64,000 bases of DNA, taken from contig CAWIXE010000002.1 in assembly GCA_963840035.1 (NCBI GenBank), positions 544,001 to 608,000 on the forward strand. The letters are read 5' to 3'. A program made the position numbers and the translations under genes. The stretch is from a candidate division FCPU426 bacterium (GTDB lineage: Bacteria > Oederibacteriota > PGYV01 > Palsa-1178). A model generated the notes under the pieces. That model worked only from the letters and a program-made list of their open reading frames with translations, was not told the origin of the DNA and ran no database searches. Below, one piece after another: positions 1,727 through 52,974 of this stretch. The first letter of the stretch is position 1. Each line of letters starts with the position of its first letter.

Positions 1727-1907
1727 GTAGGGGCGAGCCGGTGGCTCGCCCGGCTTTTGACCGGTCCAAACCAGGATCTAAAGCCGGGCGAGCCACCGGC
1801 TCGCCCCTACGAGGGCAAAGCATTACAGAACAAAGCCAGGCTGGATTTGTCTTGTTTTCGCAGGAGCGAGTCCTGCTTCGCTGGACATGGCCGGTGGCTC
1901 GCCCGGG
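1727..1907. repeat. Three family-A REPs upstream of the RAYT; the third carries a 20-nt nested insert
   Basis: Copies at 1727-1753 (+), 1784-1810 (-) and about 1860-1907 (+, insert at 1871-1890). Confidence 0.9.
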
Positions 1908-1941
1908 TTTAGATTTAGAACAAAGATATAGAGGGGTCTAT

Positions 1942-2508
1942 ATGGAAAACAAGGGAAAAATGCCGGACCGCAGGTCTGTCCGTTTGCGTGGTTATGATTA
2001 CTCTCAGGCCGGGGCGTATTATGTCACGGTTTGTGTTGAAAGCCGCAGGTGTGTTTTATCAATGATTGATAACGCGGAAAGCAACCTTAATGACTACGGG
2101 GAAGCTGTAAGGGATGAAATATTGAAAACACCGCAAATCAGAACAAACATTATAATCGATGAATTTGTTATCATGCCGAACCACTTCCACTTAATCATAA
2201 TAATTAACTCTGAAAAAGGCGTCATACTGCCCGGTGTTATTAATAGTTATTCGCCCGAAAAGATGCCGTTTGAGCTTAATAAAGACTCGCTTGGCGCGGT
2301 AATGGCGCAAATTAAATCAATAACAACCAAGAAGATACGAAAACTTGGCTTAAAGGATTTTGAATGGCAGAGAGGATATTATGAACACGTTGTTAGGGAT
2401 GAAGAGGATTTGATGGTTAAAAAGGAGTATATAGTTAACAATCCACTACAGTGGGAGCTGGATGATTACAATCCGCATAATAAAAAGACAAAGGCAGAAA
2501 ACCCTTAA
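1942..2508 (+). mobile_element. REP-associated tyrosine transposase (RAYT/TnpA-REP, Y1 HUH)
   Basis: RRSVRLRGYDYSQAGAYYVT N-terminus, HUH motif MPNHFH, WQRGYYEHVVR, catalytic Tyr in EYIVNNP; REPs on both sides; GAGGGG RBS before ATG 1942. Confidence 0.92.
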
Positions 2509-2521
2509 AACAAACCAAAGG

Positions 2522-2634
2522 CCGGGCGAGCCACCGGCTCGCCCCTACGAAAACAAAACTTGGCAAAGCAAGGCAAAACTAAGTAAGGGTTGATTTGTCT
2601 TGTCTTCGTAGGGGCGAGCCGGTGGCTCGCCCGG
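2522..2634. repeat. Inverted pair of family-A REPs downstream of the RAYT
   Basis: 2522-2548 (-) and 2608-2634 (+); arrangement and flanks resemble 970-1066. Confidence 0.9.
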
Positions 2635-2645
2635 TTTTAGATTTA

Positions 2646-3305
2646 TTACCTGGAATTACCGACACCTATACGCGGGCAGTATTTTGACACCGGGCATTTA
2701 GAACACCACGGCGATACTGAAAGGCATATGTTCTGGCCGAATAATACCAGCCAGTAGTTTATTTTCATCCAGTACTTTACCGGCAATATCTCCCTTAAAC
2801 GCAGTTCCGTGTGGTCGGCATCCTTGGTTTTGACGTATCCCCAGCGGTTGTTTATCTTGTGTACGTGCGTATCCACGCATATGCCCGGTTTGTTAAAAGC
2901 AACTGTGACTACCAGGTTGGCTGTTTTGCGGCCAACTCCGGGGATAGTCAGCAGTTCATCAAGGTCATCGGGTACTTTGCCTTTATACTTTTCCAGGATT
3001 ATCTTAGTTATATTCAGCACGTTCCTTGCCTTTACGTGATAGAAACCTGTTTTGTAAACTATCCTTTCCATCTCTTTAAGCGTTATTTTCATGACCTTTT
3101 CAGGGGTGGGCGCTATCTTATAAAGGTTCTCTGATACTATGGCCGTGGCCTCATCCTTGGCGCGCAGGGAAAGGATGCAGGGGATAAGGACCCAGTAAGG
3201 GTCGTGTGTTTTGTCGTGGAAACGCTCCAGGACCGGCGCCCGGTATTTTTTTGTGTAATCCCTGATAATCTTTAAAACGATATCGATATTTTTGTTATTA
3301 ACCAT
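2646..3305 (-). CDS. nth: Endonuclease III
   Basis: HhH motif LLTIPGVGRKTAN, VDTHV, and C-X6-C-X2-C-X5-C 4Fe-4S motif. Confidence 0.92.
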   Translation of the reverse strand: MVNNKNIDIVLKIIRDYTKKYRAPVLERFHDKTHDPYWVLIPCILSLRAKDEATAIVSENLYKIAPTPEKVMKITLKEMERIVYKTGFYHVKARNVLNITKIILEKYKGKVPDDLDELLTIPGVGRKTANLVVTVAFNKPGICVDTHVHKINNRWGYVKTKDADHTELRLREILPVKYWMKINYWLVLFGQNICLSVSPWCSKCPVSKYCPRIGVGNSR

Positions 3306-3306
3306 A

Positions 3307-3798
3307 TTACACCTTTATATTCTTTATGAGATGGATTGCGTAGAAAAACAACATAAAGCCGCAGCAAAGAACCTTAAATATGACACCTGCGATAAATCCC
3401 AGGAATGTCCCGAAAGAAGCCTTAAGCGACGGTAATATCTTTGATCCGAGGGTCAATTCGCCGATTAGTGCCCCTAAAAAGGCGCCGGCAACCATGCCTG
3501 CCGGAGGTAATACAAAAATACCGGCGAGCATTCCGATTATAGAACCTGTAACAGCCCTGTCAGAACCGCCGAATTTTTTCGCGGCAATTACGGGGAATAA
3601 ATTATCAAGGAAAGTAGCGGCGAGGGTTAAGATGCCGAGCAGAATAAGCGTGTCCGTGGTAAAGTGCCCGTATTTTGAAAAATGAAGGCATAACAGGCCG
3701 GCAAATGACAGGGGGGGCCCGATAAGTATGGGCATCACACAGCCGAGCAGCCCGACAATCAGCAATAAACCGCCTATTATAACGAGAGCTATGTCCAT
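3307..3798 (-). CDS. DUF456-like membrane protein
   Basis: GLLGCVMPILIGPPL, AKKFGGS and GAFLGALIGE patterns. Confidence 0.8.
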   Translation of the reverse strand: MDIALVIIGGLLLIVGLLGCVMPILIGPPLSFAGLLCLHFSKYGHFTTDTLILLGILTLAATFLDNLFPVIAAKKFGGSDRAVTGSIIGMLAGIFVLPPAGMVAGAFLGALIGELTLGSKILPSLKASFGTFLGFIAGVIFKVLCCGFMLFFYAIHLIKNIKV

Positions 3799-3908
3799 GG
3801 AACTCCTTTGAGTGGGGGGCTCGAGATGCAGAATCTGGAATTAAAAACAAGGCAGTTATTCACGGTTTGTTTTTTAATCCGCATTCCGCAATCGACATTC
3901 CGCATTTC

Positions 3909-5297
3909 CTATATCTCCTCCCTTGCCGGTGAAACCGGCCGTTCTTTCATTTTCATCAATGCCCGTTCTTTCCATTTGCCGGCTTTATAGTACCAGTAGG
4001 AAATGATCATCCCGATATATACGCTCACTGTCATGCCGATCCAGATGCTTAGTTCCTTTAACTGCGTTTTTTCAATAAGCAGCCAGGATATGCCGGCCCT
4101 GAAGATGATAAGCGATATGAAGGCAAAGACCGTAAGGGGGATTGTGTCGCCGGCGCCGCGGATAACACCCTGGAAAGCGAACATCATGGCAAAGGCAAAA
4201 TATGTAAGGGAATCTATACGCCAGTACATCTTTGCCGCTTCCCAGACATGCTCGTGATTGGAGAATAATCCGGCAATCTGGTTTGGGAACACATTGACGG
4301 GTATGTAGAAGAAAAGCGCGAAGCCAAGGGATATGAACATGGCATTTCTCATTATTTCGGGTATTTTGTCATCCTTGCCGCTGCCGATTGCCTGTGCTGC
4401 CATAGCTGAAACCGCTGACCCGAGCGACATGGCAGGCAGAAAAGAGAACTGGTCAATCCTCATGCCGATTCCATAACCGGCGATGACGTCCGCCCCGAAT
4501 TTATTAACAAATGTTATTATTATAACCGCGCTCACAGCGTTAATTACCATCTGTACTGAAACAGGGACGCCTATTATGAACATTTTTTTTATAATGGAAA
4601 AATCAAGTTTGTATTTCCATCTTAGGACATTAAGCATGACGTTTTTCTTCGCGAGGTAGACAAATGCGAAAAGCGCGGCTATGAACTGCGATATTACGGT
4701 GGCAAGGGCCGAACCGGCAATACCGAGTTTTGGAAGGCCGAATGCCCCCACTATGAGAATCGGCGCCAGAATGACATTTAAAATAATCGCGATTATCTGC
4801 AGTATGAAAGGGGTCTTTGAGTCCCCGAGGCCGCGCAGCACGCCTGAGAACCAGTTAAAAGAGAACATGAATATCAGGCCGGAGAAAATTATGACGATGA
4901 AAGTCTGCGCGTCCTTGACGATGTTCGCGGGGGTATTAAGGGCGTGCAGCAGCGGGCCGATAAAAATGATGGCCAGCGTGGAAACTACGACGCACATCGC
5001 AAGAACGGTCATGAAAGAATTGACAAGTATTTTTTCAAGGAAGGGCATGTCTCCCATGCCATATGCCTGTCCTACCATGATTACTGTGGCAATGGCAATG
5101 CCGATAACCAGCGATATCATAAGAAACATAAGGGGCCCGACAGATGATATGGAAGCCAGGGCGTCTGAACCGATTAGGCGGCCAACCCAAAGGGCGTCTA
5201 TTACGCTGAAAGAAGCCTGCAGCATGTCGCCCAGAATAATGGGGAATGAATATTTAAGGAGGTTCTGTAAAAGGTTGCCTTCAGTAAGATTTTTCAT
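3909..5297 (-). CDS. MATE family efflux transporter
   Basis: NLTEG start, about 12 TM segments, LRGLGDSKTP and GIAGSALATVISQ motifs. Confidence 0.92.
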   Translation of the reverse strand: MKNLTEGNLLQNLLKYSFPIILGDMLQASFSVIDALWVGRLIGSDALASISSVGPLMFLMISLVIGIAIATVIMVGQAYGMGDMPFLEKILVNSFMTVLAMCVVVSTLAIIFIGPLLHALNTPANIVKDAQTFIVIIFSGLIFMFSFNWFSGVLRGLGDSKTPFILQIIAIILNVILAPILIVGAFGLPKLGIAGSALATVISQFIAALFAFVYLAKKNVMLNVLRWKYKLDFSIIKKMFIIGVPVSVQMVINAVSAVIIITFVNKFGADVIAGYGIGMRIDQFSFLPAMSLGSAVSAMAAQAIGSGKDDKIPEIMRNAMFISLGFALFFYIPVNVFPNQIAGLFSNHEHVWEAAKMYWRIDSLTYFAFAMMFAFQGVIRGAGDTIPLTVFAFISLIIFRAGISWLLIEKTQLKELSIWIGMTVSVYIGMIISYWYYKAGKWKERALMKMKERPVSPAREEI

Positions 5298-5568
5298 ATT
5301 TCCTCGATTCATTGGTTTATTTCATCAGTTATTGTAATAAAAATAGGGGTGGATGGCAAGGGGGAAGTGTTTTAAGGTAGGTACAAAGCTCAAGGTACAA
5401 AGCTCAAATCCCAAAGCCCAAGGTTCAAAGTCCGAAGGTGTATCGTTGCTTAACCTGGGACGGAATTTCGACCAGAAGTAAACTTACGGTCGAAAAAACG
5501 GCTTTTAACCCGTTCTGGATAAAGTTTCACTATGCGATATTTTATTGTTAAGTACCTGATATTTTTTG

Positions 5569-5597
5569 TTGACATGGTATGGGGGGTTCTGTATAAT
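5569..5597 (+). promoter_or_regulatory. Sigma70-type promoter of the yceD-rpmF-fab cluster
   Basis: TTGACA-17 nt-TATAAT, exact consensus. Confidence 0.8.
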
Positions 5598-5634
5598 TTA
5601 ACCTCGATTATCTAAAGAGCTGAGGTTATTTGAA

Positions 5635-6132
5635 ATGTTTAAAATTAAACTATCGTCATTTGGCGACAGGCAGGAGTTCACGCATGAACTCAAAAAAGGA
5701 GAAATTTCCTTTGAAAACCTCGAATTTGAGGACGGCCTGTTCATAGAGGTGGCGCTTACAAAGGACGGAACAAACACAGTCATTGTTGAAGGCCATATAA
5801 AGGGCACCCTTATGCTTACTTGCGGCAGGTGCCTGGAAGGCTACAAGCAGGCTGTGGATTCGGATATTATCGGTATTTTTAAGGAAAAAAATACGATACT
5901 TCAGGATGATATAGCAAATGACGTTATGCCATTTTCAAATAATGTAATAGACCTGCATGATTTTCTGAGGGAGGCCATGCTTTTGGAGCTGCCCCTGAAA
6001 CCCCTTTGCCGTGTGGACTGCCAGGGACTTTGTCCCGTATGCGGCAAGAATAATAATAATGAGAAGTGTGACTGCATAAAGAAACTCAAAGAAGAAGAGA
6101 CATTCAAGCCTTTTAAAAAGCTTGATTTATAA
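5635..6132 (+). CDS. yceD: DUF177/YceD family protein
   Basis: CGRCL and PLCRVDCQGLCPVCG motifs; lies upstream of rpmF. Confidence 0.88.
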   Translation: MFKIKLSSFGDRQEFTHELKKGEISFENLEFEDGLFIEVALTKDGTNTVIVEGHIKGTLMLTCGRCLEGYKQAVDSDIIGIFKEKNTILQDDIANDVMPFSNNVIDLHDFLREAMLLELPLKPLCRVDCQGLCPVCGKNNNNEKCDCIKKLKEEETFKPFKKLDL

Positions 6133-6149
6133 ACCAGGAGGTAAGTAAA

Positions 6150-6335
6150 TTGGCAAATTTAACAAGAAAAACATCAAAGTCAAAATCAAGAAGCAGGAGG
6201 GCCGCCAACCAGAAGTTGAGGCAGAGCCTTAATCTCTCGGACTGCCCGAACTGCCACCAGAAAAAATTACCGCACAAAGTCTGCGGAAACTGCGGTTTTT
6301 ATGACGGCAGGGACATCCTTAAAAAGGCCGACTAA
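6150..6335 (+). CDS. rpmF: 50S ribosomal protein L32
   Basis: Basic N-terminus and CPNC...PHKVCGNCGFY; TTG start after AGGAGG. Confidence 0.93.
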   Translation: MANLTRKTSKSKSRSRRAANQKLRQSLNLSDCPNCHQKKLPHKVCGNCGFYDGRDILKKAD

Positions 6336-6368
6336 GACAAAACTTAACAATCTAAATCCGGAGGCATA

Positions 6369-7382
6369 ATGAGAATAGTCCTTGACGCTATGGGGAGTGA
6401 TAATGCCCCTCATGTTGAAATAGACGGGGCGCTGCAGGCGGTAAAAGAATTTTCTGATATTACTGTGGTGCTTGTCGGAAAAAAAGACGTGCTGGAACCT
6501 TTGCTTAAAAGCAAAGGCGATGCCGCATCCTTAAAAAGGATAGAAATCGTCAATGCCGATGAAGTTGTCACCATGTCGGACCACCCGGCAGAGGCTTTTA
6601 AAACAAAAAAGAATTCATCAATCGCGGTATCTGCCGCGCTCTTGAAGGAAAATAAAGCTGACGCGCTCGTGTCAGCCGGCAACACAGGCTCTGTAGTGGT
6701 ACACTCACTGCTTATTATAGGAAGGATACCCGGAGTTTCCAGGCCTGCTATACTTATCCCGATGCCCAACGCAAAGGGCTTTGGCGCGCTTTTAGACGCG
6801 GGCGGCAATGTGGACTGCAAGCCAGCACACCTGGTTCAGTTCGCGTTAATGGGAATACTTTATGCCAAACACATCCTGAAGATAGATAATCCTTCTGTTG
6901 GAATGGTGTCAGTGGGTGAAGAAGAGGAAAAAGGAAATGAACTCACCAACGAAACCAACGAGCTTTTCAAGACATCAGGACTGAACTATAAGGGCCATGT
7001 GGAGGGTAAGGACATCGTAAACGCAGTCACTGATGTTGCGGTATGCGACGGGTTTGTGGGAAACGTTATTTTAAAGTTCGGTGAAGGCCTCTCTGAGTTC
7101 CTGTTTAACGGCATAAAGGATGGCATAAAAAACGGGGGCATTCTTGCCATGATAGGCGGCATGCTTTTGAAGCCTGTTTTCAGCAAAATGAAGAAAAAAT
7201 TCAGTTACGACGAATACGGCGGAGCGCCGCTTATAGGCATAAAAAAACCTGTAATAATAACCCACGGCAGGGCCAATGTAAAGGCGATTAAAAACTCGAT
7301 CAGAGTAGCCGCGGAGTTCATCAAGGACCACATAAATGAAGAAATAGAAGAGGGAATAAAAGTCTTAGGAGGAGAGAAGTGA
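6369..7382 (+). CDS. plsX: Phosphate acyltransferase PlsX
   Basis: LDAMGSD, SAGNTG, DGFVGNV and YGGAPLIG motifs. Confidence 0.95.
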   Translation: MRIVLDAMGSDNAPHVEIDGALQAVKEFSDITVVLVGKKDVLEPLLKSKGDAASLKRIEIVNADEVVTMSDHPAEAFKTKKNSSIAVSAALLKENKADALVSAGNTGSVVVHSLLIIGRIPGVSRPAILIPMPNAKGFGALLDAGGNVDCKPAHLVQFALMGILYAKHILKIDNPSVGMVSVGEEEEKGNELTNETNELFKTSGLNYKGHVEGKDIVNAVTDVAVCDGFVGNVILKFGEGLSEFLFNGIKDGIKNGGILAMIGGMLLKPVFSKMKKKFSYDEYGGAPLIGIKKPVIITHGRANVKAIKNSIRVAAEFIKDHINEEIEEGIKVLGGEK

Positions 7383-8359
7383 GCATAAAAGCGGGAATAC
7401 TCGGGTGCGGTTATTATGTGCCTGAAAGAATAATGACCAATTTTGAACTTGAGAAAATCGTTGATACATCCGACGAATGGATAAGAACCAGGACGGGTAT
7501 AGAGCAGAGGCGCATAGCTGCCGAAGGCGAATGCACGTCAGATATGGCTTTAAAAGCGGCTGAGCGCGCCATCAAGGACGCCGGCATTAATAAGGATGAG
7601 ATTGACCTCGTAGTTATACCGACTATCTGTCCGGATTACGCGTGGCCGGCTACGGCATGTATCACAACTGCAAAACTCGGATTGAAAAACGTGCCGGCTT
7701 TTGACGTTTCAGCCGCGTGCTCGGGTTTCATATACGGGCTGACAGTGGCCAGGTCCATGGTTGAGTCAGGGCTTTATAAAAGGGTCCTGCTTATAGCGGC
7801 CGAGAAATTTTCCACATACCTTGACTGGACAGACAGGAACACCTGCGTTTTAATGGGCGACGGTGCCGGAGCCATGGTAATAGGCCCCAGCGAGACCAGC
7901 CAGATAATGTCAACATATCTTAATTCCGACGGAAGCCATCCTGAATATCTTTGCCAGCCCGGAGGCGGATCTGTTATGCCTTTATCCCAGAAAGTGCTGG
8001 ATGAAAAGCAGAACTTCATGCACATGAACGGCAAGGAAATATATGTAAACGCCGTTGAGAAGATGCCGGAAGCCCTTGATAAGGCTATGGCGCTGGCGGG
8101 AGTCACCGCGGATCAGGTGGATTTTATGATATTCCACCAGGCAAACATAAGGATAATCCAGTACATAGCTAAAAAATTCAACGTACCTGATGAAAAAAAT
8201 ATAATAAACATACAGCGTTACGGCAACACTTCAGCCGCGACCATCCCGATAGCGTTCGCGGAAGCGTATGAAGCGGGGAAGATAAAAAGGGGCCACACAG
8301 TAGCATTCTCCGCTTTCGGCGGGGGATTGACGTGGGGCGGAGCGGTTGTAAAGTTCTAA
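7379..8359 (+). CDS. fabH: Beta-ketoacyl-ACP synthase III
   Basis: DTSDEWIRTRTGI, AACSGF, HQAN and YGNTSAA motifs. Confidence 0.95.
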   Translation: MSIKAGILGCGYYVPERIMTNFELEKIVDTSDEWIRTRTGIEQRRIAAEGECTSDMALKAAERAIKDAGINKDEIDLVVIPTICPDYAWPATACITTAKLGLKNVPAFDVSAACSGFIYGLTVARSMVESGLYKRVLLIAAEKFSTYLDWTDRNTCVLMGDGAGAMVIGPSETSQIMSTYLNSDGSHPEYLCQPGGGSVMPLSQKVLDEKQNFMHMNGKEIYVNAVEKMPEALDKAMALAGVTADQVDFMIFHQANIRIIQYIAKKFNVPDEKNIINIQRYGNTSAATIPIAFAEAYEAGKIKRGHTVAFSAFGGGLTWGGAVVKF

Positions 8360-8464
8360 AAATGTGATAAGTGATATGTGCTAAGTGGTATGTGAAAGAT
8401 GAAGCGGTACACATATCACATACCACACACCACATAGCACGAATTAATTTTTAAAGGAGTTTTT

Positions 8465-9400
8465 ATGAGCATCGCACTTGTTTTCCCCGGCCAGGGCGCG
8501 CAGTACGTGGGCATGGGTTTTGATTTCTGCGAGGGCAATGAAAGGGCGCACGCGATTTTTGCGGCGGCCGAAGCCGCGCTCCGGAGCAAACTTGATATCC
8601 GTTTAAAAGATGTCATGTTCATCGGCCCGGAAGAGGAATTAAAGAAGACTGATTATACGCAGCCCGCGATTTTTACCATGAGCTGCGCCATATATGAGGC
8701 ATTAAAGGACAGGTTCGCCGGAAAAGTGGCTTACACGGCAGGGCACAGCCTTGGCGAGTACAGCGCGCTTTACGCGGCAGGGGCGTTTTCATTTGAAGAC
8801 GGCATCAAGCTCGTCAGCCGCAGGGGCGCTCTTATGCAGGAAGCCTCAGTTAAGAATAAAGGCGGCATGGCAGCGGTGCTCGGGCTTGATGACGCAAAGA
8901 TTAAAGACCTTTGTGATAAGGCTGGGGCAGCGGGATATATAACGGCAGCAAACCTGAACTCCCCGGGACAGGTGGTAGTATCAGGAAGTATTGAAGGAAT
9001 AGACGCCGGAGAGGCCATCGCAAAGGAACTCGGCGCGAAAAGGTATATTAAACTAGCTGTAGCCGGAGCGTTCCATTCAAAGTTAATGCAGAGCGCGGCA
9101 GACAGCCTGAAAACAGAGATATCCGGATTTGGAATTAAAGACGCGGCCATACCCGTTATTTCAAACTTCCTGGCAGGCGAAGTAAAGACCTCCGGGCAGA
9201 TTCAGGAAGCCCTTATTAACCAGATTACAGGTTCGGTACGCTGGGTCGAGTCAGTCCAGTATATGATATCAAAGGGCGTTGATACATTCGTTGAAATAGG
9301 CCCGGGATGCGTGCTCTCAGGCCTTATAAAGAAGATAGACAGGAATGTAAAGGCTTTTAACGTAGATAAGCTTACAGACGTGGATAAGCTGACAGTTTAA
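8465..9400 (+). CDS. fabD: ACP S-malonyltransferase
   Basis: FPGQGAQ, GHSLGEY and AFHS motifs. Confidence 0.95.
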   Translation: MSIALVFPGQGAQYVGMGFDFCEGNERAHAIFAAAEAALRSKLDIRLKDVMFIGPEEELKKTDYTQPAIFTMSCAIYEALKDRFAGKVAYTAGHSLGEYSALYAAGAFSFEDGIKLVSRRGALMQEASVKNKGGMAAVLGLDDAKIKDLCDKAGAAGYITAANLNSPGQVVVSGSIEGIDAGEAIAKELGAKRYIKLAVAGAFHSKLMQSAADSLKTEISGFGIKDAAIPVISNFLAGEVKTSGQIQEALINQITGSVRWVESVQYMISKGVDTFVEIGPGCVLSGLIKKIDRNVKAFNVDKLTDVDKLTV

Positions 9401-9453
9401 CCCGGAATCCAGAATCTAGAATATAGAATCCGGAATAAATTTTGGAGGTAATC

Positions 9454-10197: not shown

Positions 10198-10409
10198 CAG
10201 ATCGTAGCTGAGCCAAGCGCTTAAGCGCGCAGGCGAGGCGTACGAGATGCTATACCCGCTCAAGTCCGAGGAGCTTGCGACGAGGACAAGCGGTATAATA
10301 TATAATTACGCAGCAGACGTCGGACTACAAGCAGCGCTTTGCGCTGAAGAATATTAAAACAAATTAAAAACAAAAAAAGAAAGAAAACAAAATTCAGGAG
10401 GTTTTAGAA

Positions 10410-10649: not shown

Positions 10650-10680
10650 GGCTTAACAAAATCCAAATCAGAGGTTTCGC

Positions 10681-15811: not shown

Positions 15812-16357
15812 GTAGGGGCCGCCCCATGTGGCGGCCCGCACGGTGTTTCGCGTGACGGGTGGATGTGTCCTTGTAGGGGCGGACCTATGTGTCCGCCCGC
15901 ACAGCTTTTCGCGTGGCGGGTGGATGTGTTTTTTGAAGTAACAATGGCTTTGCTTGTATCCTGGCTTGAGATAATCAACATGGCTGGAGGAAGTGTGATG
16001 CTGGAAGGGTATCATTACGGATTGCTAAATTGGGAAGCAGTTGATTAGTCCGCAATCCTCCGAGCCCATACGTTCCTTCAAAAAGCCACATCCACCCGCC
16101 ACGCGCAGCGTTAAAACGCAAATGTGCTTTGTAACGCAATGATTCTAGATTCTTTGTGTTCCTGTAGGGGCCGCCCCCATGCTCGCCGGCTGAAGCTTCA
16201 GCGAAAGCCGGTGGCAGCCCGCAAGGAGGAACAACACAACACCGTTCTTTTTGTTAAGACTTTGATCTCGTAGGGGCGAGCCGGTGGCTCGCCCGGCCTT
16301 AGATCTAAACCCGGGCGAGCCACCGGCCATGTCCAGCGAAGCAGGACTCGCCCCTAC
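15812..16357. repeat. Mixed REP cluster (two other GTAG-REP types plus a family-A pair)
   Basis: GTAGGGGCCGCCCCATGTGGCGGCCC at 15812, GTAGGGGCGGACCTATGTGTCCGCCC at 15873, an insert-bearing copy at 16164, and family A at 16270 (+) and 16311-16357 (-, with insert). Confidence 0.85.
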
Positions 16358-27689: not shown

Positions 27690-28000
27690 TCAAGTGCCGG
27701 GCGAGCCGCCGGCTCGCCCGGCACTTGACTTTGTTGGTATGTCTTGTCTTGTTTTCGTAGGGGCGAGCCGGTGGCTCGCCCGGCCTTTGACTTTGTTGGT
27801 ATGTCTTGTCTTGCTTTCGTAGGGGCGAGCCGCCGGCTCGCCCGGCCTTTGACTTTGTTGGTATGTCTTGTCTTGCTTTCGTAGGGGCGAGCCGCCGGCT
27901 CGCCCGGCCTTTGACTTTGTTGGTATGTATTGTCTTGTTTTCGTAGGGGCGATCCGGCCATGTCCGTTGAAGCTTCAGCGAAAACGGATGGCTCGCCCGG
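27690..28000 (+). repeat. Tandem array of family-A REPs with 62-bp period
   Basis: GTAG at 27757, 27819, 27881 and 27943 with near-identical linkers; starts with a perfect palindrome; last unit has a 31-nt insert. Confidence 0.93.
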
Positions 28001-39762: not shown

Positions 39763-40906
39763 GGGACCGTGTCGTGACTTAAGACATTGTAGAAAAAAAG
39801 GCTATAAAAATAAGGCCTTAGTATTATAATTGGATAAATACAAGGGTTTTGCTTATAATATCGAAAATATAGGGGGGATTTATGAGCAGGCAGTTGCGTA
39901 TTGTATTTCCTGGTGCGGTTTATCATGTAAGCGCCAGGGGGTATGAGAAAAGTTTTATATTTAAGGATTATAAAGACAAACAAAGGCTGATGGATATTAT
40001 TTTTGACGTACATAGAAAGTACAGTTTTATTATTTATGCATATGCAATCATGGATAATCATTATCATCTAATAATGGAAACAATCGAACCAAATCTGTCA
40101 TTTATCATGTACCATATAAATAAGAGATACGGGACGTATTATAATATCAGGCATGAAAGAAAAGGCTATGTTTTTGAAAAGCGTTTTAGCGCTTTTATAA
40201 TACAAAAAGGGGAAGCCATGAAAGCTCAGGTTCAGTATGTTCATATGAACCCGATGCGCGCAAATATGGAAAAAGTATTGGGGGAATACAAGTGGACCAG
40301 CCATAATTATTACCTTGGGAACGAAAAACAGTCGATAGCTGACAGTGAATTTGTGCTTTCGATGTTTGGTGAAGACACAAAGACAGCGATACCGGAGTAT
40401 GAAGCTTATATGGCAAAATCACGCAGATTCGGCAAATCAAGGACTGAAATCGGCGTTTATGGTACGGGAATAATAGGGGAGGAAAGTTTTGTAAAACAAA
40501 TAAAACTTATAGCTAATAATAAAAAGCTGCCCGAAGCTATAAACAAACGCAAGGAAATGAAAAAGATTTACGGATATGGGGAAATAATAAGGGCTGTAAG
40601 CGGATATTACGGAATTTCTGAAGTGGTTTTGTGCTCTAAAAAGGGGTGTTGGAATATATATAAGAAAGCAGCGATTTATTTATTGTTAAATGATGGGGGA
40701 TTAACAGGAGCAGACATAGGCAGGCTGTTTGAAATGCATCAAAGCTCAATATCAAAAGCTTCAAACCGGCTTAAAGATAAAATGGAGAAGGATAAAGAAA
40801 TAGCAAGTGAAATAGAAAAAATACGTGTTAAATACGTAAAAATACGCGAAGCACTAATAAAATAAGGCGTTTTATATTAGAATGTCTTGAGTCACGACAC
40901 GGACCC
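39763..40906 (+). mobile_element. Y1/HUH transposase element bounded by 26-bp inverted repeats
   Basis: GGGACCGTGTCGTGACTTAAGACATT (39763-39788) and AATGTCTTGAGTCACGACACGGACCC (40881-40906); 2 mismatches. Confidence 0.85.
39882..40865 (+). CDS. Y1/HUH transposase-like protein with C-terminal DnaA-C-like HTH
   Basis: MSRQLRIVFPGAVYHV, MDNHYH, YVHMNP and YKWTS; C-terminal AAIYL...GLTGADIGRLF. Confidence 0.9.
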   Translation: MSRQLRIVFPGAVYHVSARGYEKSFIFKDYKDKQRLMDIIFDVHRKYSFIIYAYAIMDNHYHLIMETIEPNLSFIMYHINKRYGTYYNIRHERKGYVFEKRFSAFIIQKGEAMKAQVQYVHMNPMRANMEKVLGEYKWTSHNYYLGNEKQSIADSEFVLSMFGEDTKTAIPEYEAYMAKSRRFGKSRTEIGVYGTGIIGEESFVKQIKLIANNKKLPEAINKRKEMKKIYGYGEIIRAVSGYYGISEVVLCSKKGCWNIYKKAAIYLLLNDGGLTGADIGRLFEMHQSSISKASNRLKDKMEKDKEIASEIEKIRVKYVKIREALIK

Positions 40907-42671: not shown

Positions 42672-42776
42672 ATATAATTAAAAAAGCCACGGATACATTG
42701 ACGGAAAGTCAAATTATGTTATAATCACATGTTGCCGCGCTAAATTATGTGAAGACTGGAAGACAAGGGAGATAAA

Positions 42777-44348: not shown

Positions 44349-44361
44349 TCAGGAGAAGACA

Positions 44362-45993
44362 ATGGCACCCAAAAAAAAGGCTCTGACGAAATTTGCTTCA
44401 TGGAAATCGCTGAAATCAAATCATGGAAAGGTAATGAAGACCGGCTTAAGGGAGTTATTTTCTTCAGACCCTGGCCGGGCGCAGAGCATGTCCATAGAAG
44501 CCGAAGGGATATATTATGATTATTCAAAGCACAGGGTTAATTCAGAGACCATAAAGCTGCTCGTAAAGCTCGCCAAAGAAGCGGGTTTGAGGCAAAAAAT
44601 TGACGCGATGTTCCGCGGGGAAAAGATTAATTCAACTGAAAACAGGGCAGTCCTGCATGTGGCGCTGCGTTCGCCAAAGTCCTCATCCATAATAGTGGAC
44701 GGTAAGGACGTAATACCGGGAGTGCACGCGGTCCTGGATAAGATGGAGGGGTTTGCGGGCAGGATAAGGAGCGGGTCCTGGAAAGGTTATACCGGCAAAA
44801 AGATAAAGAACATAGTAAACATAGGCATCGGAGGGTCGGATCTGGGGCCTGTTATGGCATATGAAGCGCTGAAGAGTTATTCCATGCGCGAACTGACATT
44901 CAGGTTTGTCTCGAATGTCGATGACACGGATTTTGCCGAGGCGACTTTTGACCTGAACCCGGAAGAAACGCTTTTCATAGTCTCTTCCAAGACTTTTACC
45001 ACCCTTGAGACCATGACGAACGCACTAACAGCGCGTGACTGGCTGCTGAAAAGTTTAAAGGATAAGGGCGCTGTCGCTAAACACTTTGTGGCTGTGTCAA
45101 CAAACGCGGCTGAGGTATCAAAGTTCGGCATAGATACCGCGAATATGTTCGAGTTCTGGGACTGGGTCGGCGGCAGGTATTCCATGACCTCGGCCATAGG
45201 GCTTTCAAATATGATAGCGTTCGGGCCGGAAAATTTCCGCGCCATGCTAGCGGGGTTCCATGAGATGGACGAACATTTCAGGACAGCCCCGTTTGAAAAG
45301 AACATTCCGGCAATCATGGGCCTGCTGGGACTCTGGTATACTGATTTTTTCGGGGCTGAAACCATGGCTGTGCTTCCATATGAGCAGTATTTAAAACGGT
45401 TCCCGGCCTATCTCCAGCAGATGACCATGGAGAGCAACGGAAAACGGGTGACAATAAAAGGGGAAAAGATAAACTACCAGACAGGGGCCATCTACTGGGG
45501 CGAACCCGGGACAAACGGCCAGCATTCTTTCTACCAGCTCATACACCAGGGGACAAAACTGATACCCTGCGATTTCATAGCGTTCGCGAAATCCATAAAC
45601 AAAATAGGCAGGCACCATGACCTTCTGATGGCAAATGTGTTCGCCCAGGCTGAAGCGCTGGCGTTCGGTAAGACTGCGGCTGAAGTAAAGGCTGACGGCG
45701 CCCCTGAAAACCTTGTCGCGCATAAGACATTTGAGGGCAACAGGCCTTCCTCCACGATACTCATGGAAAAACTTGACCCGAACGCGCTTGGCAAACTAAT
45801 TGCCATGTATGAGCACAGCGTATTTACACAGGCGGCAGTATGGAATATTAACGCGTTTGACCAGTGGGGAGTGCAGCTGGGAAAAGTCCTCGCTGAGAAG
45901 ATAGTGCCTGAACTTGAGGCAGTGAAAGAACCGCAGTTAAAGCACGATAATTCGACCAATACACTTATAAAAAGATACAGAAAACTCAAATAA
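44362..45993 (+). CDS. pgi: Glucose-6-phosphate isomerase
   Basis: [27 protein letters not shown] and FDQWGV motifs. Confidence 0.97.
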
Positions 45994-46022
45994 TACGGGG
46001 ATTCAAACGGGGAGGCGCGACA

Positions 46023-46910
46023 ATGAAAAGGATAAACGATTACCAGGTTGAGTGGAGCGGACTGGCTAACAGGATGGCCCAGATGTTTGACTTAAAATCA
46101 GGCAGGACCGTGCTGCTTGCGGTTGACCATGGTTATTTCCAGGGCGCACCGGCAGGCCTTGAGAACTTAAGAAAGACAATTGAACCGCTGCTTCCTTACT
46201 GCGACGCGTTCAGCCCGACAATCGGAGGATTGAAATCCAGCGTAAACCCGTGGATGAAGACCCCGGTTATTATGCGGGCTACCGGCGGGAACAGCATGAG
46301 GAAGGCTGCGGAACTGGATGATGAAGTTATAACGGTTACGGTTGATGAGATGTTAAGAATGAACGCCATCGGATTTACAGCTTCGTGCTATATAGGACTG
46401 CCGCACCAGAAGCAGACCATTGAAAATCTCACAAACCTTTCAAACGAAGCACGCAAATACGGGCTTATATCAATCGGTATTACTGCTGTCGGATCTGACC
46501 CTGTCCTGGGAAAATTTGTCAAAGGCGAGAGGGAAGACGGCGGAGAACTCTCAAAAGAGGATAAAAAAGAAGCCATCAAGTATTTAAAGCACGCCGCGCG
46601 TGTTGTTTCTGAAAACGGCGCGGATATAGTAAAGACCTATTACTGCGACGGGTTCGAGGAAGTTGTCGAGTCATGCCTTGCGCCCATTGTGATAGCGGGC
46701 GGAACAAAAAGGCCGACTAAAGAGGCGCTTGAATTCACATATAACGCCATAAAGGCCGGGGCGGTGGGCGTTGATATGGGGCGCAATATATTCCAGAACG
46801 AAAACCCTGTGGCCATGATTAAAGCGGTAAGAAGCGTGGTGCATGAGGGCAAAACGTCAAAGCAGGCCCTTGACCTTTATAACAGCCTGTCGAAGAAGAA
46901 GGCAAAATGA
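46023..46910 (+). CDS. DhnA/LsrF-type class I aldolase family protein
   Basis: LAVDHG, GADIVKTYY, IAGG and GRNIFQ motifs. Confidence 0.88.
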   Translation: MKRINDYQVEWSGLANRMAQMFDLKSGRTVLLAVDHGYFQGAPAGLENLRKTIEPLLPYCDAFSPTIGGLKSSVNPWMKTPVIMRATGGNSMRKAAELDDEVITVTVDEMLRMNAIGFTASCYIGLPHQKQTIENLTNLSNEARKYGLISIGITAVGSDPVLGKFVKGEREDGGELSKEDKKEAIKYLKHAARVVSENGADIVKTYYCDGFEEVVESCLAPIVIAGGTKRPTKEALEFTYNAIKAGAVGVDMGRNIFQNENPVAMIKAVRSVVHEGKTSKQALDLYNSLSKKKAK

Positions 46911-47935
46911 AGGCCGGCGTATACTATAATAACAGGGATGTCAGGGTTGAAGAACGGCCGATGCCTGAAACCGGTCCGGGTGACGTGCTGATAAAAGTGG
47001 CAGCCTGCGGAATATGCGGCAGCGACGTGCTGGAGTGGTACAGGATAAAAAAGGCGCCGCTGGTGCTCGGACATGAAATGTCCGGGGAAATTGTTGAAGC
47101 CGGTAAAGGCGTTAAGGGTTTTAAAAAAGGGGACAGGGTTTTTGCCACCCACCACGTGCCGTGCGGGGAATGCGCGTATTGCAAAAACGGGCATGAAACA
47201 GCGTGCGAAGTATTTCACGGTGAGAATAATTTTACACCCGGAGGGTTTTCTGAATATCTGCGGGTAACAGGAAGGTCTATAAAAACCGGATTATTTAAAC
47301 TTCCCAAAAATATGACTTATGAGCAGGCCACATTCATAGAACCGCTTGGGACCGTGGTAAGGGGACAGCGCGCCGCCGGGCTGAAGAAAGGCGATTCAAT
47401 TCTGATTCTTGGAAGCGGCATTACCGGGATTTTACACATTATGCTCGCGAAACATACGGGAGCGTCAAAGATAATTGCCACGGATATAAACCCCTATAAA
47501 CTTGAAGCGGCGAAAAAAGCCGGAGCTGACGCGGTAATAGACGCGCGCGCTGATGTCCCGGCGGAAGTCTTAAAGGTAAACGGCGGAAAACCGGTTGACA
47601 AAGTAATAATCTGCGCCGGCTCGCTCGCGGCGGCAGAGCAGGCAATAAATTCAGTTGATAAAGGCGGCACCATAATATTCTTTGCTGTGCCTAAACCCGG
47701 TGAAAAGGTAGCCATAGATTTTACTCCATTCTGGAGGAACGATATAAGCATAAAAACCAGCTACGGCGCCGCCCCACGTGATAATAAGGAAGCGATAGAA
47801 CTCATAAGCAGCGGAAAAATAAAAGTTACTGATGTAATAACCCACAGGTTAAACCTTGATAATATTGCGGAAGGGTTTAAGCTGGCGGCTGAAGGAAAAG
47901 ACTGCCTTAAAGTAATAATCACACCAAATGCATAA
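46907..47935 (+). CDS. Zn-dependent alcohol/polyol dehydrogenase
   Basis: CGSD, GHE, structural Zn CGECAYC...C and GSGITG motifs. Confidence 0.9.
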   Translation: MKAGVYYNNRDVRVEERPMPETGPGDVLIKVAACGICGSDVLEWYRIKKAPLVLGHEMSGEIVEAGKGVKGFKKGDRVFATHHVPCGECAYCKNGHETACEVFHGENNFTPGGFSEYLRVTGRSIKTGLFKLPKNMTYEQATFIEPLGTVVRGQRAAGLKKGDSILILGSGITGILHIMLAKHTGASKIIATDINPYKLEAAKKAGADAVIDARADVPAEVLKVNGGKPVDKVIICAGSLAAAEQAINSVDKGGTIIFFAVPKPGEKVAIDFTPFWRNDISIKTSYGAAPRDNKEAIELISSGKIKVTDVITHRLNLDNIAEGFKLAAEGKDCLKVIITPNA

Positions 47936-48053
47936 AGTATAAAAAAATCCAAAAATAAATTAGGATAATGCTTGACTTATTATACAAAATGTAGTATAAA
48001 CTATACATAAAGATTATCTTATACATCTAAAATTAATAAAAGGAGGCAAAATA

Positions 48054-48296
48054 GTGGGAAAACTGGAACCAAAGCTGAAAATTGTAAGCCGGCTGCACAT
48101 ATTGCGCGCTGAAAAACGGCTTTCCCAGGATGACCTGGCTAAGGCAATAGATGTTACACGGGGGACTATAGTCGCGATCGAAGGCGGGGATTATAACCCG
48201 TCGCTTGAGCTGGCTTTCAGGCTTGCGAGATATTTCAATACGGATATACACTCGATATTTCAAATAGAGGAGGGGAATGATGCAAAAAATAAATAA
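48054..48296 (+). CDS. XRE-family HTH regulator
   Basis: LSQDDLA...TIVAIEGGDYNPSLELA. Confidence 0.9.
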   Translation: MGKLEPKLKIVSRLHILRAEKRLSQDDLAKAIDVTRGTIVAIEGGDYNPSLELAFRLARYFNTDIHSIFQIEEGNDAKNK

Positions 48297-48891
48297 GTTC
48301 CTGCTTAAGTATCTTGTATACGCAATACCGTTCCACGTAATCCTGCTGATATGGGGTCTGCTGGCTTCTAAATTTGAATTTTTAAAGGGAATAAAACCCC
48401 TTGCCGCGGCCATGGATATACTTCCGTGGAATTTTATTGCCTGGCTGATTGTTCTTGTATTTGTCCTTGCGGAACTTTTGTGGTACCCGGACATGCAGAG
48501 GCGGTTTTTTGAGTCGGCAGCAAAATTCGCGGGAGTTAAGGAAAGGGATGAGAGGGAAAGTCTGGCAATTGACAGGGCGGGCAGGTACGCGTATATTTCA
48601 ACGTTGTGCCTCCTTATAGTTATGCTCTGTTTTTATTCCATCAATGTAACAATCGGCAATATCCCGCCGGATAAAGTCGTAGACGGGAAACACAGGTACA
48701 TAACTGTCGGCATCGGTATCGCCGTTACTGATGACAAACCGGTTGTTAAAAATGATAATTACATAAAGACATTTTCTAACTGGGACCTTCCGCTTTCAAA
48801 ATGGAGCCTTATATTTCTTGTCATAGCATGGCACGTGCTCAGCTTTCTATATTACCTGAGGAAAACTGATAAGTATAACCTGGAAAAATAG
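48277..48891 (+). CDS. Hypothetical membrane protein (DERE motif, DUF2178-like)
   Basis: TM segments and ERDERE...A; coupled to the XRE gene. Confidence 0.7.
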   Translation: MMQKINKFLLKYLVYAIPFHVILLIWGLLASKFEFLKGIKPLAAAMDILPWNFIAWLIVLVFVLAELLWYPDMQRRFFESAAKFAGVKERDERESLAIDRAGRYAYISTLCLLIVMLCFYSINVTIGNIPPDKVVDGKHRYITVGIGIAVTDDKPVVKNDNYIKTFSNWDLPLSKWSLIFLVIAWHVLSFLYYLRKTDKYNLEK

Positions 48892-48934
48892 CGGCCTGAT
48901 TGCCGTTCTATAATAAATTTTTAAGGAGGATGTT

Positions 48935-49558
48935 ATGGCAGAAGTAATTAAGAATCTCGCGATAGTGGGTGACGTATGGGTGCTCTATATACTCATAATT
49001 GCCAGTATAGCAAGCGTGGCAATCATGGTGGAGCGCTGGATGGTATACCGTGCAAATAAAGGGGACATATCCGCGTTCATGGACAGCCTCGCGGAAAAAC
49101 TTGATAAAAAAGACATAAAAGGCGCCATAGAGCTTGCGAATAAATCCTCGCGCATTGAGGCAAAGGTCGCTTTAGAGGGGCTGAGTAATGTGAAAAAAGG
49201 GCCGGCGTCTGTCGAGGAAGTCATGACATCAAGGTGGCTCAGGGAGAAAATTAAGCTGGAAAAGAACCTTGTCATACTCGCGACCATGGGCAACAACGCC
49301 CCGTTTGTGGGGCTCTTTGGAACGGTACTCGGCATAATCAAGGCTTTTAATGACCTGGCGCTTACAGGCCAGTCAGGAATAGCCGTTGTCATGTCAGGCA
49401 TATCGTCGGCATTGATTGCCACGGCGCTTGGCATACTTGTGGCAATACCTGCTGTTATCGCGAATAATTATTTCGCGTCCAGCTTAAGGCAGGCGCAGTC
49501 CAACAGCGAAAGCTTAACGCATATCATAATGGCGTTTTTAAAGGAAACGGGTAAATAG
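48935..49558 (+). CDS. exbB: MotA/TolQ/ExbB proton channel
   Basis: APFVGLFGTVLGI and ALIATALG motifs. Confidence 0.9.
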   Translation: MAEVIKNLAIVGDVWVLYILIIASIASVAIMVERWMVYRANKGDISAFMDSLAEKLDKKDIKGAIELANKSSRIEAKVALEGLSNVKKGPASVEEVMTSRWLREKIKLEKNLVILATMGNNAPFVGLFGTVLGIIKAFNDLALTGQSGIAVVMSGISSALIATALGILVAIPAVIANNYFASSLRQAQSNSESLTHIIMAFLKETGK

Positions 49559-49560
49559 CC

Positions 49561-49959
49561 ATGAAATTTGACGATGAACAGATGATAGTCTCCGGAATAA
49601 ATGTAACGCCGCTGGTGGATATCACGCTTGTGTTGCTGATCATATTCATGGTCACCGCCACATTTGTAAGCGAACGCGCCATGGAAGTAAACATCCCAAA
49701 AAGCGCGACAAAGGAAAACGCGCCGACGCCCGCCATATCGGTTACGCTTGGCAAAGACGGAACGCTGAAGATCATGAAGAAATCAGTTACGCTTGAGCAG
49801 TTAAGCGTGCTGCTTGCCAATGAGGTAAAGGCGTTTCCTGATGAGAAGGTGCTTTTAAAGGCTGAAAAGGACCTGCCGTACTATAAGGTGGCGGAAGTAC
49901 TTGAAGCGATTAAACTGGCCGGGATTAAAAAAGTGGCCCTGGCAATGGAAAGAAAATGA
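49561..49959 (+). CDS. exbD: ExbD/TolR protein
   Basis: INVTPLVDITLVLLIIFMV. Confidence 0.92.
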   Translation: MKFDDEQMIVSGINVTPLVDITLVLLIIFMVTATFVSERAMEVNIPKSATKENAPTPAISVTLGKDGTLKIMKKSVTLEQLSVLLANEVKAFPDEKVLLKAEKDLPYYKVAEVLEAIKLAGIKKVALAMERK

Positions 49960-50567
49960 GGCTCCTAAAGGGTTTTACAGCGTCCATACTTATACATGTA
50001 TTCATTTTTTTATCATGCTATTACATGATTATATGGTGGAAAAATTCGGATTTGTCGGCCGTTGATATTGACCTGACATCGTCGACCCTTATGCTGCGGC
50101 CTTCAAAAGCAACAGCCAAATCCGCGCAGCCGGAGATTACGGTTCAGGATTGGTATTTAAGCGACAGCAAACAGCTGCCGCCCAAACCTGTGTTAACATC
50201 CCAAACAGAAGCTGCTGAGCAGCCTGCCATAGCAGAGTGCCCGGCGCCGTGTCCGGATAATACTTCTGACTGGGCAACGGCAGGATCCACTACGCGAAGG
50301 CCGGTGTGGTCAGAAGGGTTTATAACTGAGGACGACTATCCCAAAGAAGCAAGGGCGCAGGGGCGTGAAGGAAAAGTTAAAGTCGAAGTTTTTATAGACG
50401 CGACAGGCAGGGTGCGGGACGCGAGGGTAATTGAGTCAACGGACGGAAGGTTCACCGCGGTCGTACTTGACAAACTTAAAAAAGCGAAGTTTGAACCGGC
50501 GCTTGATAAATCCGGAAATCCTGTAGCTGTGCATATGGCCATGCCTATAGTGTTTGAACTACGATGA
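49956..50567 (+). CDS. tonB: Energy transducer TonB
   Basis: TM segment with SxxxH; YPKEARAQGREGKV...FEPA C-domain. Confidence 0.88.
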   Translation: MRLLKGFTASILIHVFIFLSCYYMIIWWKNSDLSAVDIDLTSSTLMLRPSKATAKSAQPEITVQDWYLSDSKQLPPKPVLTSQTEAAEQPAIAECPAPCPDNTSDWATAGSTTRRPVWSEGFITEDDYPKEARAQGREGKVKVEVFIDATGRVRDARVIESTDGRFTAVVLDKLKKAKFEPALDKSGNPVAVHMAMPIVFELR

Positions 50568-50583
50568 ATATGAGGACGGTAAA

Positions 50584-52831
50584 ATGAGAAAAAAATTCAG
50601 GTTAAAGATCGCGTTTATAATTGTAATAATTTCATTTGCAGCTGTTTTAAACGCTGCCACCGCAAGTGCCGGAGTAACAGTTACGGCAAATGCCGCTATA
50701 TCCGGAAAGGTGATGGTGCTTGGCGCTTCGGATGCCATTGAAGGGGCCATTATCAGCTTAAACGGGGTGACTCAGAGCGCTGCAGTTACCGGACCGGACG
50801 GAAAGTACAGGTTTGAGCTGGCGACAGGGACAGCGGATGTCCGATGCACAGCCTATGGCTTTCAGGAAAGGGCGTTTCACACGGTTGTGGAGCCGGGCAA
50901 TGAATATGAAATGAATGTTTACCTGGACAGGGTGGATTTCATTTCTGACGCGGTGGTAGTGCGCGCAAAAAAAGATAAAAACGAAGTTATAAAAACAACG
51001 ATTGAGCGGGCGCAGCTTAAGAAAATTCCCGGGACTGCCGGCGACGCGCTCCGCGCGGTGCAGTCCATGCCGGGAGTCGCAGTAATGAGCGACTATTCAA
51101 GCGGGCTTGCCGTACAGGGAGGAGGCCCCGGGGACAATATGTATCTTTTAGACGGAATTCCGTGGCCTTATCCATTTCATTTTGGCGGGCTGCTTTCAAC
51201 GGTTTACTCAGGCCTGCTTTCATCCGTTGACCTGAACACGGCCGGATTTGGCGCGCAGTGGGGAAATATAATGGGCGCGGTGCTTGACGCAAAGACCAGG
51301 CCGGGCGCCAAAGACAGGTTCAGGGGTGATATAGACATAAGCATCATAACTTCACAGGCTCTTTTTGAGGCGCCTATCGGCCTGGGTGACGCTTCTGTTG
51401 CCGTATATGGCAGGAGAAGCTATATTGACCTTATTATCGGACAGGCAATGAAAACAGAAGGGTTTACAGCCTTCCCGTTTTTCTGGGATATTGGAGGGTC
51501 TCTTGATTTTACCCTGGGCAAGGACAACCATTTTAAAGCCATAGCACTTGCCACCGACGACATGCTAAAAATGTACGTGGACCCGGCGGAGAATACAGCA
51601 AGTTCCTATACCGGCGATTTTTCCATGGACAACGGCGCTTTTACGGGAGGCGCGAGCTGGTCAAATACATCTTTATCCGGACTTACATCGAAATTAACGG
51701 CATATTACTATAATCTTTTTGAAAAATCCGTTATTGGAAAAGATTTTAACATAAATTTGGGGCAGTCGGATTTCGGGCTAAAAGAAGAACTTGAATGGGA
51801 TGCGGGAAGTTTTATGGGGGTTGGGCATGCGATAGGGTTCGGCGCTGACGTGCAGCGCATACATGATGAGGCTGTTGTGAATCTTGCTTTTGACATAATC
51901 CACCATACAGCTGACCCGACTTCGACAAAAGTTGACGGCTGGCACACAAACCGCGGAGGATATCTGCAGGACAGGATGCGGCTGCTGCCCGGCCTTGACC
52001 TGACTGCCGGCATCCGGTATGACAAAAATGACAAAGTGGGGCGCGACACAACGCTTCCAAGAATATCACTTTCATGGCAGAGCGATGAAAAGACTCTCTG
52101 GAAGGCGGCGTGGGGAATTTACAGCCAGTTTCCGACAGATGTGCAGCTGAAATAACGTTTTCGGAAACCCGGCGCTTACCGCCAATATGGCTCAGCATGC
52201 CGTTTTCAGCGTGGAGAGAAAACTGACCAATGAGATTACAGCAAGGCTTGACGGGTATTATAAGTATTATACCGGCCTGGTGGGAAGCGATCCTGACACG
52301 GGCATGTATGACAATAATACTTCAGGAAGCGCGAAAGGCGCGGAAATATTCATAAAAGCGGATTATGGCGAAAAATTTTTCGCGTGGATATCATATGCGC
52401 TCTCAAAATCCGAGCGTTTAAAACCGTCGTTTGATAAGTGGGTGGCATACCAGTATGACCAGACTAATTTGCTCACGGCCGTGGCGAGCTATGGCATAAC
52501 GCCGGCGTGGTCAATAGGCGCAAAGCTGCATTACAATTCAGGCCCGCTTGTTAAAAAATTGCTGGGCAGTTATAAGGATGTAAATGACGAATGGCACGGC
52601 ATATTCTCTGATAATTATGACAAAAGGCTGGATGACTATTTAAGGCTGGATGTAAGGACGGATTATGCCTTCCGTTTTGAAGGCTGGAAGTTGAACATTT
52701 ATGTGGAACTGTTGAATGTATTAAACAGGAAAAATCCGAACCAGATAATGTATTCGGATGACTACAGCGAATCGCAGACAGTTAATAACCTGCCGTTTAT
52801 CCCGTATCTGGGGGTGGAGGCGGAATGGTGA
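50584..52831 (+). pseudogene. TonB-dependent receptor with a 1-nt frameshift at about 52150-52152
   Basis: Carboxypeptidase-like N-domain, plug (IPGTAGDALRAVQSMPGV) and barrel ending in W; removing one A in CTGAAATAA gives VQLNNVFGNPALTANMAQH and joins the two ORFs. Confidence 0.85.
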
Positions 52832-52885
52832 TAAACACAATTGAGGATTTACAATTGACGATTGTCGATTCTTGCGTGCGGAGTG

Positions 52886-52974
52886 GTAGCCGCAGCCTCC
52901 ATGTCCGTTGTAGCTTTCGCGGAGACGGATTAGGCTGCGTAACGGGGTACCGTAACCGGAAGGTTTGCGACTAC
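52886..52974. repeat. GTAGCCGCA-type REP pair, first copy with a 31-nt nested insert
   Basis: GTAGCCGCAGCCT[insert 52899-52929]TTAGGCTGCG, then an inverted degenerate copy ending GCGACTAC. Confidence 0.78.

Follow-up and report, generated by a model that had tools for sequence, protein, structure and literature searches.

We analyzed a 64,000-nt stretch of contig CAWIXE010000002.1 (hereafter, the window) from the genome of a candidate division FCPU426 bacterium (G000; three contigs, 98% complete), in which small hairpins of 20-31 nt are nested within repetitive extragenic palindromes (REPs). These hairpins carry no gene, occur in a long and a short form and, as the long form, also lie upstream of genes for a small stand-alone GIY-YIG nuclease in other genomes. 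We consider it somewhat probable, from the comparisons described below, that the gene-less copies spread with the help of this SLX1-like nuclease in two tiers. Five inserts were identified in the window, where they lie with their hosts and a gene for a REP-associated tyrosine transposase (RAYT) as follows:

1860..1904, + strand: filled host of REP family A, its head GCAG in place of GTAG, lying ahead of the RAYT gene
1871..1890, - strand: short hairpin insert of 20 nt with leader CCATG, stem TCC/GGA and a GC-GAA-GC triloop hairpin; its host is 45 nt long, against 25 nt when empty
1942..2508, + strand: RAYT-like Y1 transposase gene of 188 aa (PF01797, 29.1 bits; cut-off 23)
16164..16221, + strand: filled host of REP family C, 58 nt against 27 nt when empty, with one additional C in the host C-run
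16182..16211, + strand: long hairpin insert of 30 nt with leader CTCG and stem CCGGCT/AGCCGG, in the REP C loop before T
16313..16357, - strand: filled REP A host, whose inverted partner at 16270-16294 (+) is empty
16327..16346, + strand: short insert of 20 nt, identical in sequence, site and host-relative orientation to 1871-1890
27738..27998, + strand: tandem array of four 62-bp units, with the REPs at 27757, 27819 and 27881 empty and that at 27943-27998 filled
27958..27988, + strand: long insert of 31 nt in a REP A loop, with its junction between G and T
52886..52939, + strand: filled host of REP family B, 54 nt against 23 nt when empty
52899..52929, + strand: long insert of 31 nt in the REP B loop, with its junction between T and T

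The original prediction, made from the window, had described hairpins nested in REPs, and all five were recovered, the four main ones at exactly the coordinates it gave. Removal of the insert was said to restore the REP length, and for those four it does so precisely: in comparison with empty genome copies, REP A grows from 25 to 45 nt (1871-1890; 16327-16346) or from 25 to 56 nt (27958-27988) and REP B from 23 to 54 nt (52899-52929), with no target duplication at any of them. The array at 27738..27998 constitutes an empty/filled set within the window itself, and the last 30 nt of its insert are identical to the insert in an unrelated host, a REP F copy at C2:1581313. The inserts at 1871 and 16327 both exist, but they represent one sequence at one family A site in one orientation and not two events. 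The fifth insert is likewise real and 30 nt long, but its boundary had been misplaced: the true insert is 16182-16211, and the CCATG at 16177 belongs to the host REP C, as shown by empty REP C copies and two other filled ones. A private flank common to 1871 and 16327 was dropped as a candidate, since empty copies have the same flank.

The long form consists of an unpaired leader of 4-5 nt (C-[A/C/T]-[T/A/C]-G), a 6-bp stem, a 3x3 RNA/GNA internal loop and GC-n4-GC. It is this architecture that is constant, and not the invariant CCATGTCC..GGA that had been proposed; the predicted covariation of the stems was confirmed by variants such as TCCGTC, TCCGTT, TCCGCC, CACGTT, CCGGCT and others. The short form comprises a leader, a TCC/GGA stem and a GC-GNA-GC triloop hairpin. 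Y-GNA-R loops in DNA are unusually stable via sheared G-A pairs. A structure scan of the genome retrieved 22 hairpins with a C..G leader, compared to 0, 0, and 1 in three block shuffles, and this excess indicates that the hairpin is not due to chance. Long copies with a TCCTGC stem carry GCGAAGC twice, and four long copies, two of which represent one locus, collapse to the short pattern upon loss of one such unit. Because this loss yields the short pattern, the short form is probably a slippage collapse of the long form with directly repeated GCGAAGC.

The candidate partner gene came to light in a relative, in which a hairpin copy separates a tRNA from an 80-aa GIY-YIG gene (L013). Loci of this clade, chosen by similarity to the query protein, were taken from metagenomes; nine of the best 80 out of 505 were dropped for having less than 250 nt of upstream DNA, and 71 were scored. 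The hairpin was present in the 300 nt upstream of the gene at 63 of these 71 loci, and in both orientations at 27 of them. The corresponding controls gave 11/1420 for shuffles, 0/47 for distal downstream regions and 23/3000 for random genome windows, and a stricter scan (leader plus short loop) retained 15/71 clade loci versus 0/1420 shuffles. In the relatives, five of seven clade loci had the hairpin by scan and a sixth by eye, and other GIY-YIG groups had it at 0/22 loci, two of these with short upstream DNA. At the genome level, the hairpin was detected in 6/7 genomes with the clade gene versus 7/34 without it. At L097, the stem and loops of the sense copy are those of inserts in the host genome. 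The usual layout runs from a tRNA or tmRNA through an antisense hairpin, with its arm starting from CCA, and then a sense hairpin to the GIY-YIG gene. A same-strand tRNA or tmRNA was found within 450 nt at 59/91 loci, with the hairpin arm starting in CCA in 50 of the 59, and a 3' tRNA piece of at least 10 nt was repeated downstream at only 5/53.

The clade protein has 80 residues and a single domain (PF01541), and it keeps Y5, Y17, G19, R27, H31, and E63 (GIY-YIG catalytic Tyr/Arg/His/Glu). Its best sequence and fold matches are Slx1-like proteins, and the predicted fold (pLDDT 95) matches SLX1/HIGLE. The clade is large: among 8000 scored clusters, at least 6147 matched at E<=1e-20. In the tree, the clade (23 rows) is separated from UPF0213-like rows and from Ssn-like ones (support 95/93 versus 100/99), the latter being four proteins taken as such from their flanking CGTC/TGTC-type repeats. 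Two genera from the family of G000 retain broken copies of the gene (L060, L069). At L060:1040-1370 (G002), a tmRNA is followed by a short ORF, which we take to be of the four-helix-bundle type and which replaces the start of the broken GIY-YIG gene beyond it. A search of the plasmid collection for the nuclease gave nothing at E<=1e-8. Two candidates for a partner within G000 were rejected: its GIY-YIG genes L009-L011, none of which is flanked by the hairpin, and a nuclease remnant at C2:1238188, which is a chance frame within another gene. One of these genes (L009:1370-2200, C2:229100) is Ssn-like and has TGTC-headed hairpin repeats on its flanks, followed downstream by a tandem array.

The curated census of the genome (the call-set minus five doubtful calls, C2:1078573, 865533, 1306162, 1376935, and 16389, plus five degenerate copies) amounted to 51 copies, 42 long and nine short. 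GTAG-headed REPs, which represent about 0.39% of the genome, host 42 of the 51 (33 long and all nine short). Their eight families are A (8+6, long plus short), B (8), C (3+3), D (8), F (3), and G, H, and I with one copy each. Three further copies reside in a different palindromic repeat, of which 17 copies are empty; one interrupts a heptamer doublet that is otherwise found empty, in 50 copies; and another is nested within the hairpin itself (C2:878172). Four are unassigned to a host. REPs are favored and not exclusive targets, the heptamer repeat, the other palindrome, and the hairpin itself having been entered as well. Inserts occur in both orientations relative to the GTAG strand, and a few loop bases are missing from the family G host. 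The rejoined flanks of the 51 initial candidates folded at a mean of -8.7 kcal/mol, as opposed to -3.2 at random sites. Most copies (46/51) lie outside ORFs of 150 or more codons, and the cassette copies abut tRNA ends, as might be expected if an RNA role (terminator, stabilizer, or tRNA-processing signal) kept the hairpins in place and their spread were incidental. We regard such a role as highly improbable, given that a U-run is absent, that both orientations are found in hosts, that the hairpin is patchy among congeneric species, and that Rfam at gathering score matched only tRNA and tmRNA, in 7 loci.

Several other small repeats share this genome. The heptamer repeat is a dispersed four-unit element (TGGGATT/TGTGATT type) present in 50 or more copies, most of them preceded by T-rich runs (e.g., C1:13846, C2:809200). 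A third small hairpin family with the core CCTGAGC[T/C]TGTCGAAGG gave 34 loose matches and nests in GTAG REPs, CGTC-type repeats, and the heptamer repeat (C2:254545, C2:252160, C2:898628, C2:903687); a copy in L074 (G001) separates tRNA-Gln from a UPF0213-like GIY-YIG gene. Many tRNA genes of G000 have AT-rich perfect hairpins at CCA and a common CGGCTG-rich repeat (C1:177527, C2:1369639), which are unrelated to the insert.

Junctions were compared among 86 copies from G000 and its relatives, grouped by an imperfect clustering into 35 flank classes. The base following the insert (+1) was T in 29 classes, A in 5, and C in 1, and no base was preferred on the 5' side (-1). Leaders were CTTG in 14 classes, CATG in 6, CCTG in 5, others in 10, and GTAG in none. 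Rejoined sites folded at -6 kcal/mol or better in 17/35 classes versus a background of 16%. The junctions in empty sites fell between G and T, T and T, C and T, G and G, and G and C. Variable target duplication of the kind left by nicking and target-primed reverse transcription was rejected at C2:811377, where the 14-bp direct repeat is accounted for by a heptamer doublet that predates the insert and is found empty in 50 copies; it is doubtful at L012, L034, and L041, which lie in similar short tandem repeats. A 7-nt periodicity was observed in 7/92 flank sets (background 1.9%).

The degenerate pattern matched 13/41 genomes of the phylum (reversed control 0) and 4/5 cassette-bearing genomes of other phyla, in which several copies reside in GC-rich REP-like hairpins. 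Orthologous sites at groES, trpB, and a third locus are hairpin-free in congeneric species. At a further orthologous site the hairpin is present in G002 and G006 and missing from G004. Divergence on the 5' side obscures exact empty alleles at these loci. The hairpin-free congeneric sites, along with identical 30-nt inserts in unrelated hosts, sustain the claim that several REP families were entered without target duplication. An identical hairpin across phyla can also join unrelated contigs in assemblies. In G006, contig C163 (L249:1780-2200) has a GC-rich tRNA-Ala cassette stretch joined to a host-type gene exactly through the hairpin; the remainder of this gene starts another contig, and the join is probably an assembly chimera via the common hairpin.

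On the one hand, identical 30-mers are found in unrelated hosts (A and F; B and D2), which points to jumps. In A, as in C, a single site is shared by two distinct insert types; D-type hosts were entered at three sites or more, and each of the four haplotypes of host B includes filled copies. One composite lineage per family was not seen when traced by outer flanks, as those of filled copies are unclustered (the nearest neighbor is filled in 0/6 and 0/6 for A, 0/7 for B, 0/3 for C, and 3/7 for D). On the other hand, insert identity is 26.4/30 within host classes versus 22.5/30 between them (0/5000 permutations), and the nearest insert belongs to the same host class for 24/28. This likeness within host families suggests later spread at the same site, so that most copies are not independent jumps. 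Descent of all copies from one composite ancestor, which had been named as the outcome that would overturn the prediction, holds in part, in view of the greater likeness within families. Entry into a new host was thus a rare event, after which the insert propagated at that site, flanks excluded, either through conversion or through copying of the bare composite. A near-identical filled/empty pair is found at C1:211251/218588.

Some of these patterns might also arise if the hairpin were a passive passenger, a cassette end that enters repeats by enzyme-free template switching and is multiplied within composite REPs by RAYT or gene conversion, with the GIY-YIG protein acting on the full cassette only. 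The strong likeness of inserts within hosts is in line with this explanation, as are the filled C composite common to three genera, the seven D1 copies (six of them within 19 kb), and the lack of the clade gene in G000. We nevertheless find it rather unlikely, considering the constant length of 30-31 nt, the conserved unpaired leader and fixed edges across the 35 flank classes, the identical inserts in unrelated hosts, and leader and loop letters that are conserved across phyla while the stems covary.

The original prediction had suggested movement possibly through an HUH enzyme. Such an enzyme (RAYT/IS200-like) would recognize the hairpin, use the leader as a guide, and transfer it into REP loops. 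The residence of 42/51 copies in RAYT-type REPs, the absence of target duplication, as in HUH transposition, the presence of at least ten Y1 genes in G000, and the short form inside a REP beside the window RAYT would all suit such an enzyme. However, the long hairpin was found within 300 nt at 0/33 Y1/RAYT loci, GTAG-SSS being present at 14/33. The guide rule described in PMC8266576 predicts CA sites for NNTG leaders, but T is the +1 base of most CTTG, CATG, and CCTG classes; there is no CT junction rule, no leader-to-target covariation, and no base preference at -1. In addition, G029 combines 10 copies and an intact GIY-YIG gene with no match to the window RAYT. We consequently judge an HUH mover improbable. 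The window RAYT scored 65.5 bits against NF047646, under the cut-off of 80, and has family A REPs on both sides, at 1727-1751 (+), 1786-1810 (-), 2524-2548 (-), and 2608-2632 (+); we infer that it is the carrier of REP A and not of the insert. A second Y1 gene of the window (327 aa, at 39921-40244; L006) has no adjoining REP or insert, and the RAYT-like gene at L225:1489-2040 (C1:545239) contains its own REP copy inside the reading frame.

SsnA recognizes its own hairpin as single-stranded DNA (ssDNA) and cleaves it a few bases upstream, at positions that differ by one base between homologues (Chenal et al. 2025, PMC11893778). By analogy, in the rare first tier of the nuclease-assisted spread that we favor, the GIY-YIG protein would bind the hairpin as ssDNA and cut just 5' of the 4-5 nt leader. 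A host 3'-OH end at the new site, lying on the opposite strand and in most cases terminated by A, might then prime copying that starts at the hairpin foot and runs off at the cut. The outcome would be an exact insertion that is flush at its 3' edge before T or A and varies by one base at its 5' edge (30 versus 31 nt), and the lack of target duplication would be explained as well. The favored landing places are exposed loops of REPs and other dispersed repeats. In the commoner second tier, filled copies would multiply with the insert at an unchanged site, either through homing-like gene conversion mediated by the REP arms or through copying of the composite REP by RAYT. A broader generalization is tentative and in our view doubtful: that elements of 20-31 nt, which would rank among the smallest mobile DNAs known, moved by stand-alone SLX1-like GIY-YIG nucleases via nick-primed copying, parasitize selfish repeats and then home among them without transposase, target duplication, or reverse transcriptase, each small GIY-YIG clade running its own hairpin.

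Several observations weigh against the participation of the nuclease. The clade gene is absent from G000, in which more copies were seen than in any other genome, and from G006 and G020 (14 and 7 pattern matches; completeness 86-88%). The hairpin co-occurs with RAYT in 8/15 genomes versus 5/26 without it, and only the locus-level test separates the two candidates. The monophyly of the clade is partly by construction, given the choice of loci by similarity. In the five cassette-bearing genomes of other phyla, +1 was T in 9/18 cases, A in 6, and C in 3, and folding energies favor neither strand (z -1.0 to -2.6). Finally, the short form was found near no GIY-YIG gene, is followed by C or G, had no partner in 11 viral loci, and in its exact pattern was found in no other of 99 phylum genomes.

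If the favored reading is true, thousands of genes annotated as 'putative GIY-YIG endonuclease' would drive minimal repeats across phyla instead of acting in repair, and the clade would include a new candidate sequence-specific ssDNA nuclease. REPs, parasites in their own right, would then be parasitized by a hairpin of 30 bases. This reading would also offer a direct assay for Ssn-like nucleases moving their own repeats, which is raised as a hypothesis in the Ssn paper (PMC11893778).

We found no description of the hairpin family, the tRNA-end cassette, or the REP nesting in the literature, figures, bioRxiv supplements and subscription papers aside. Free-standing GIY-YIG homing endonucleases spread at the same site among homologous copies. 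The present system shares this same-site spread with them, but its clade has no DNA-binding domains beyond the nuclease. Unlike miniature inverted-repeat transposable elements (MITEs), the insert is an exact length gain without target duplication, has no terminal inverted repeats, and measures only 20-31 nt; similar to MITEs and Rickettsia palindromic elements (RPEs in PMC3733652), it is a small dispersed palindrome, of a kind sometimes found in frame. Miniature elements derived from IS200/IS605 are characterized by a fixed 4-5 nt target and two end hairpins, whereas the present element has one hairpin and one conserved base (+1 T/A). As in stand-alone bacterial Slx1-like GIY-YIG proteins (Dunin-Horkawicz 2006, PMC1564403; PDB 1zg2, 7wme, 7cq2), the clade protein is a minimal domain without the C-terminal Asn region; those proteins are regarded as probable repair enzymes, and the text covered of PMC1564403 connects them with neither palindromes nor tRNA ends. 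GTAG REP/RAYT systems are likewise built on a short hairpin with a 5' tetranucleotide, compensatory stems, and no target duplication (Corneloup 2021, PMC8266576; Di Nocera 2013, PMC3733652), and some REP families are inserted in other palindromes (PMC3733652). None of five motif words occurs in the text supplements of that paper. None of their defining features is seen here: the hairpin has no GTAG at its 5' foot, its long form never lies beside a RAYT, and no guide-chosen CT/CA junctions are apparent, and the REP is the host instead of the guest. The Ssn proteins (cd10448) with their NTS/SRM repeats also pair a single-domain GIY-YIG gene with a short dispersed hairpin that has unpaired conserved bases by the stem (PMC11893778), and the physical link of gene and hairpin that marks them is present at 63/71 loci. 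In contrast, the present clade is separate in the tree from Ssn-like proteins and has an SLX1-like fold, and its repeat has an RNA/GNA internal loop, tRNA CCA anchoring, and exact nesting in other repeats; neither cd10449 nor tRNA is mentioned in the accessible part of PMC11893778. The hairpin works like Ssn/SRM and, more loosely, like REP/RAYT, and by the features that define each it stands outside both.

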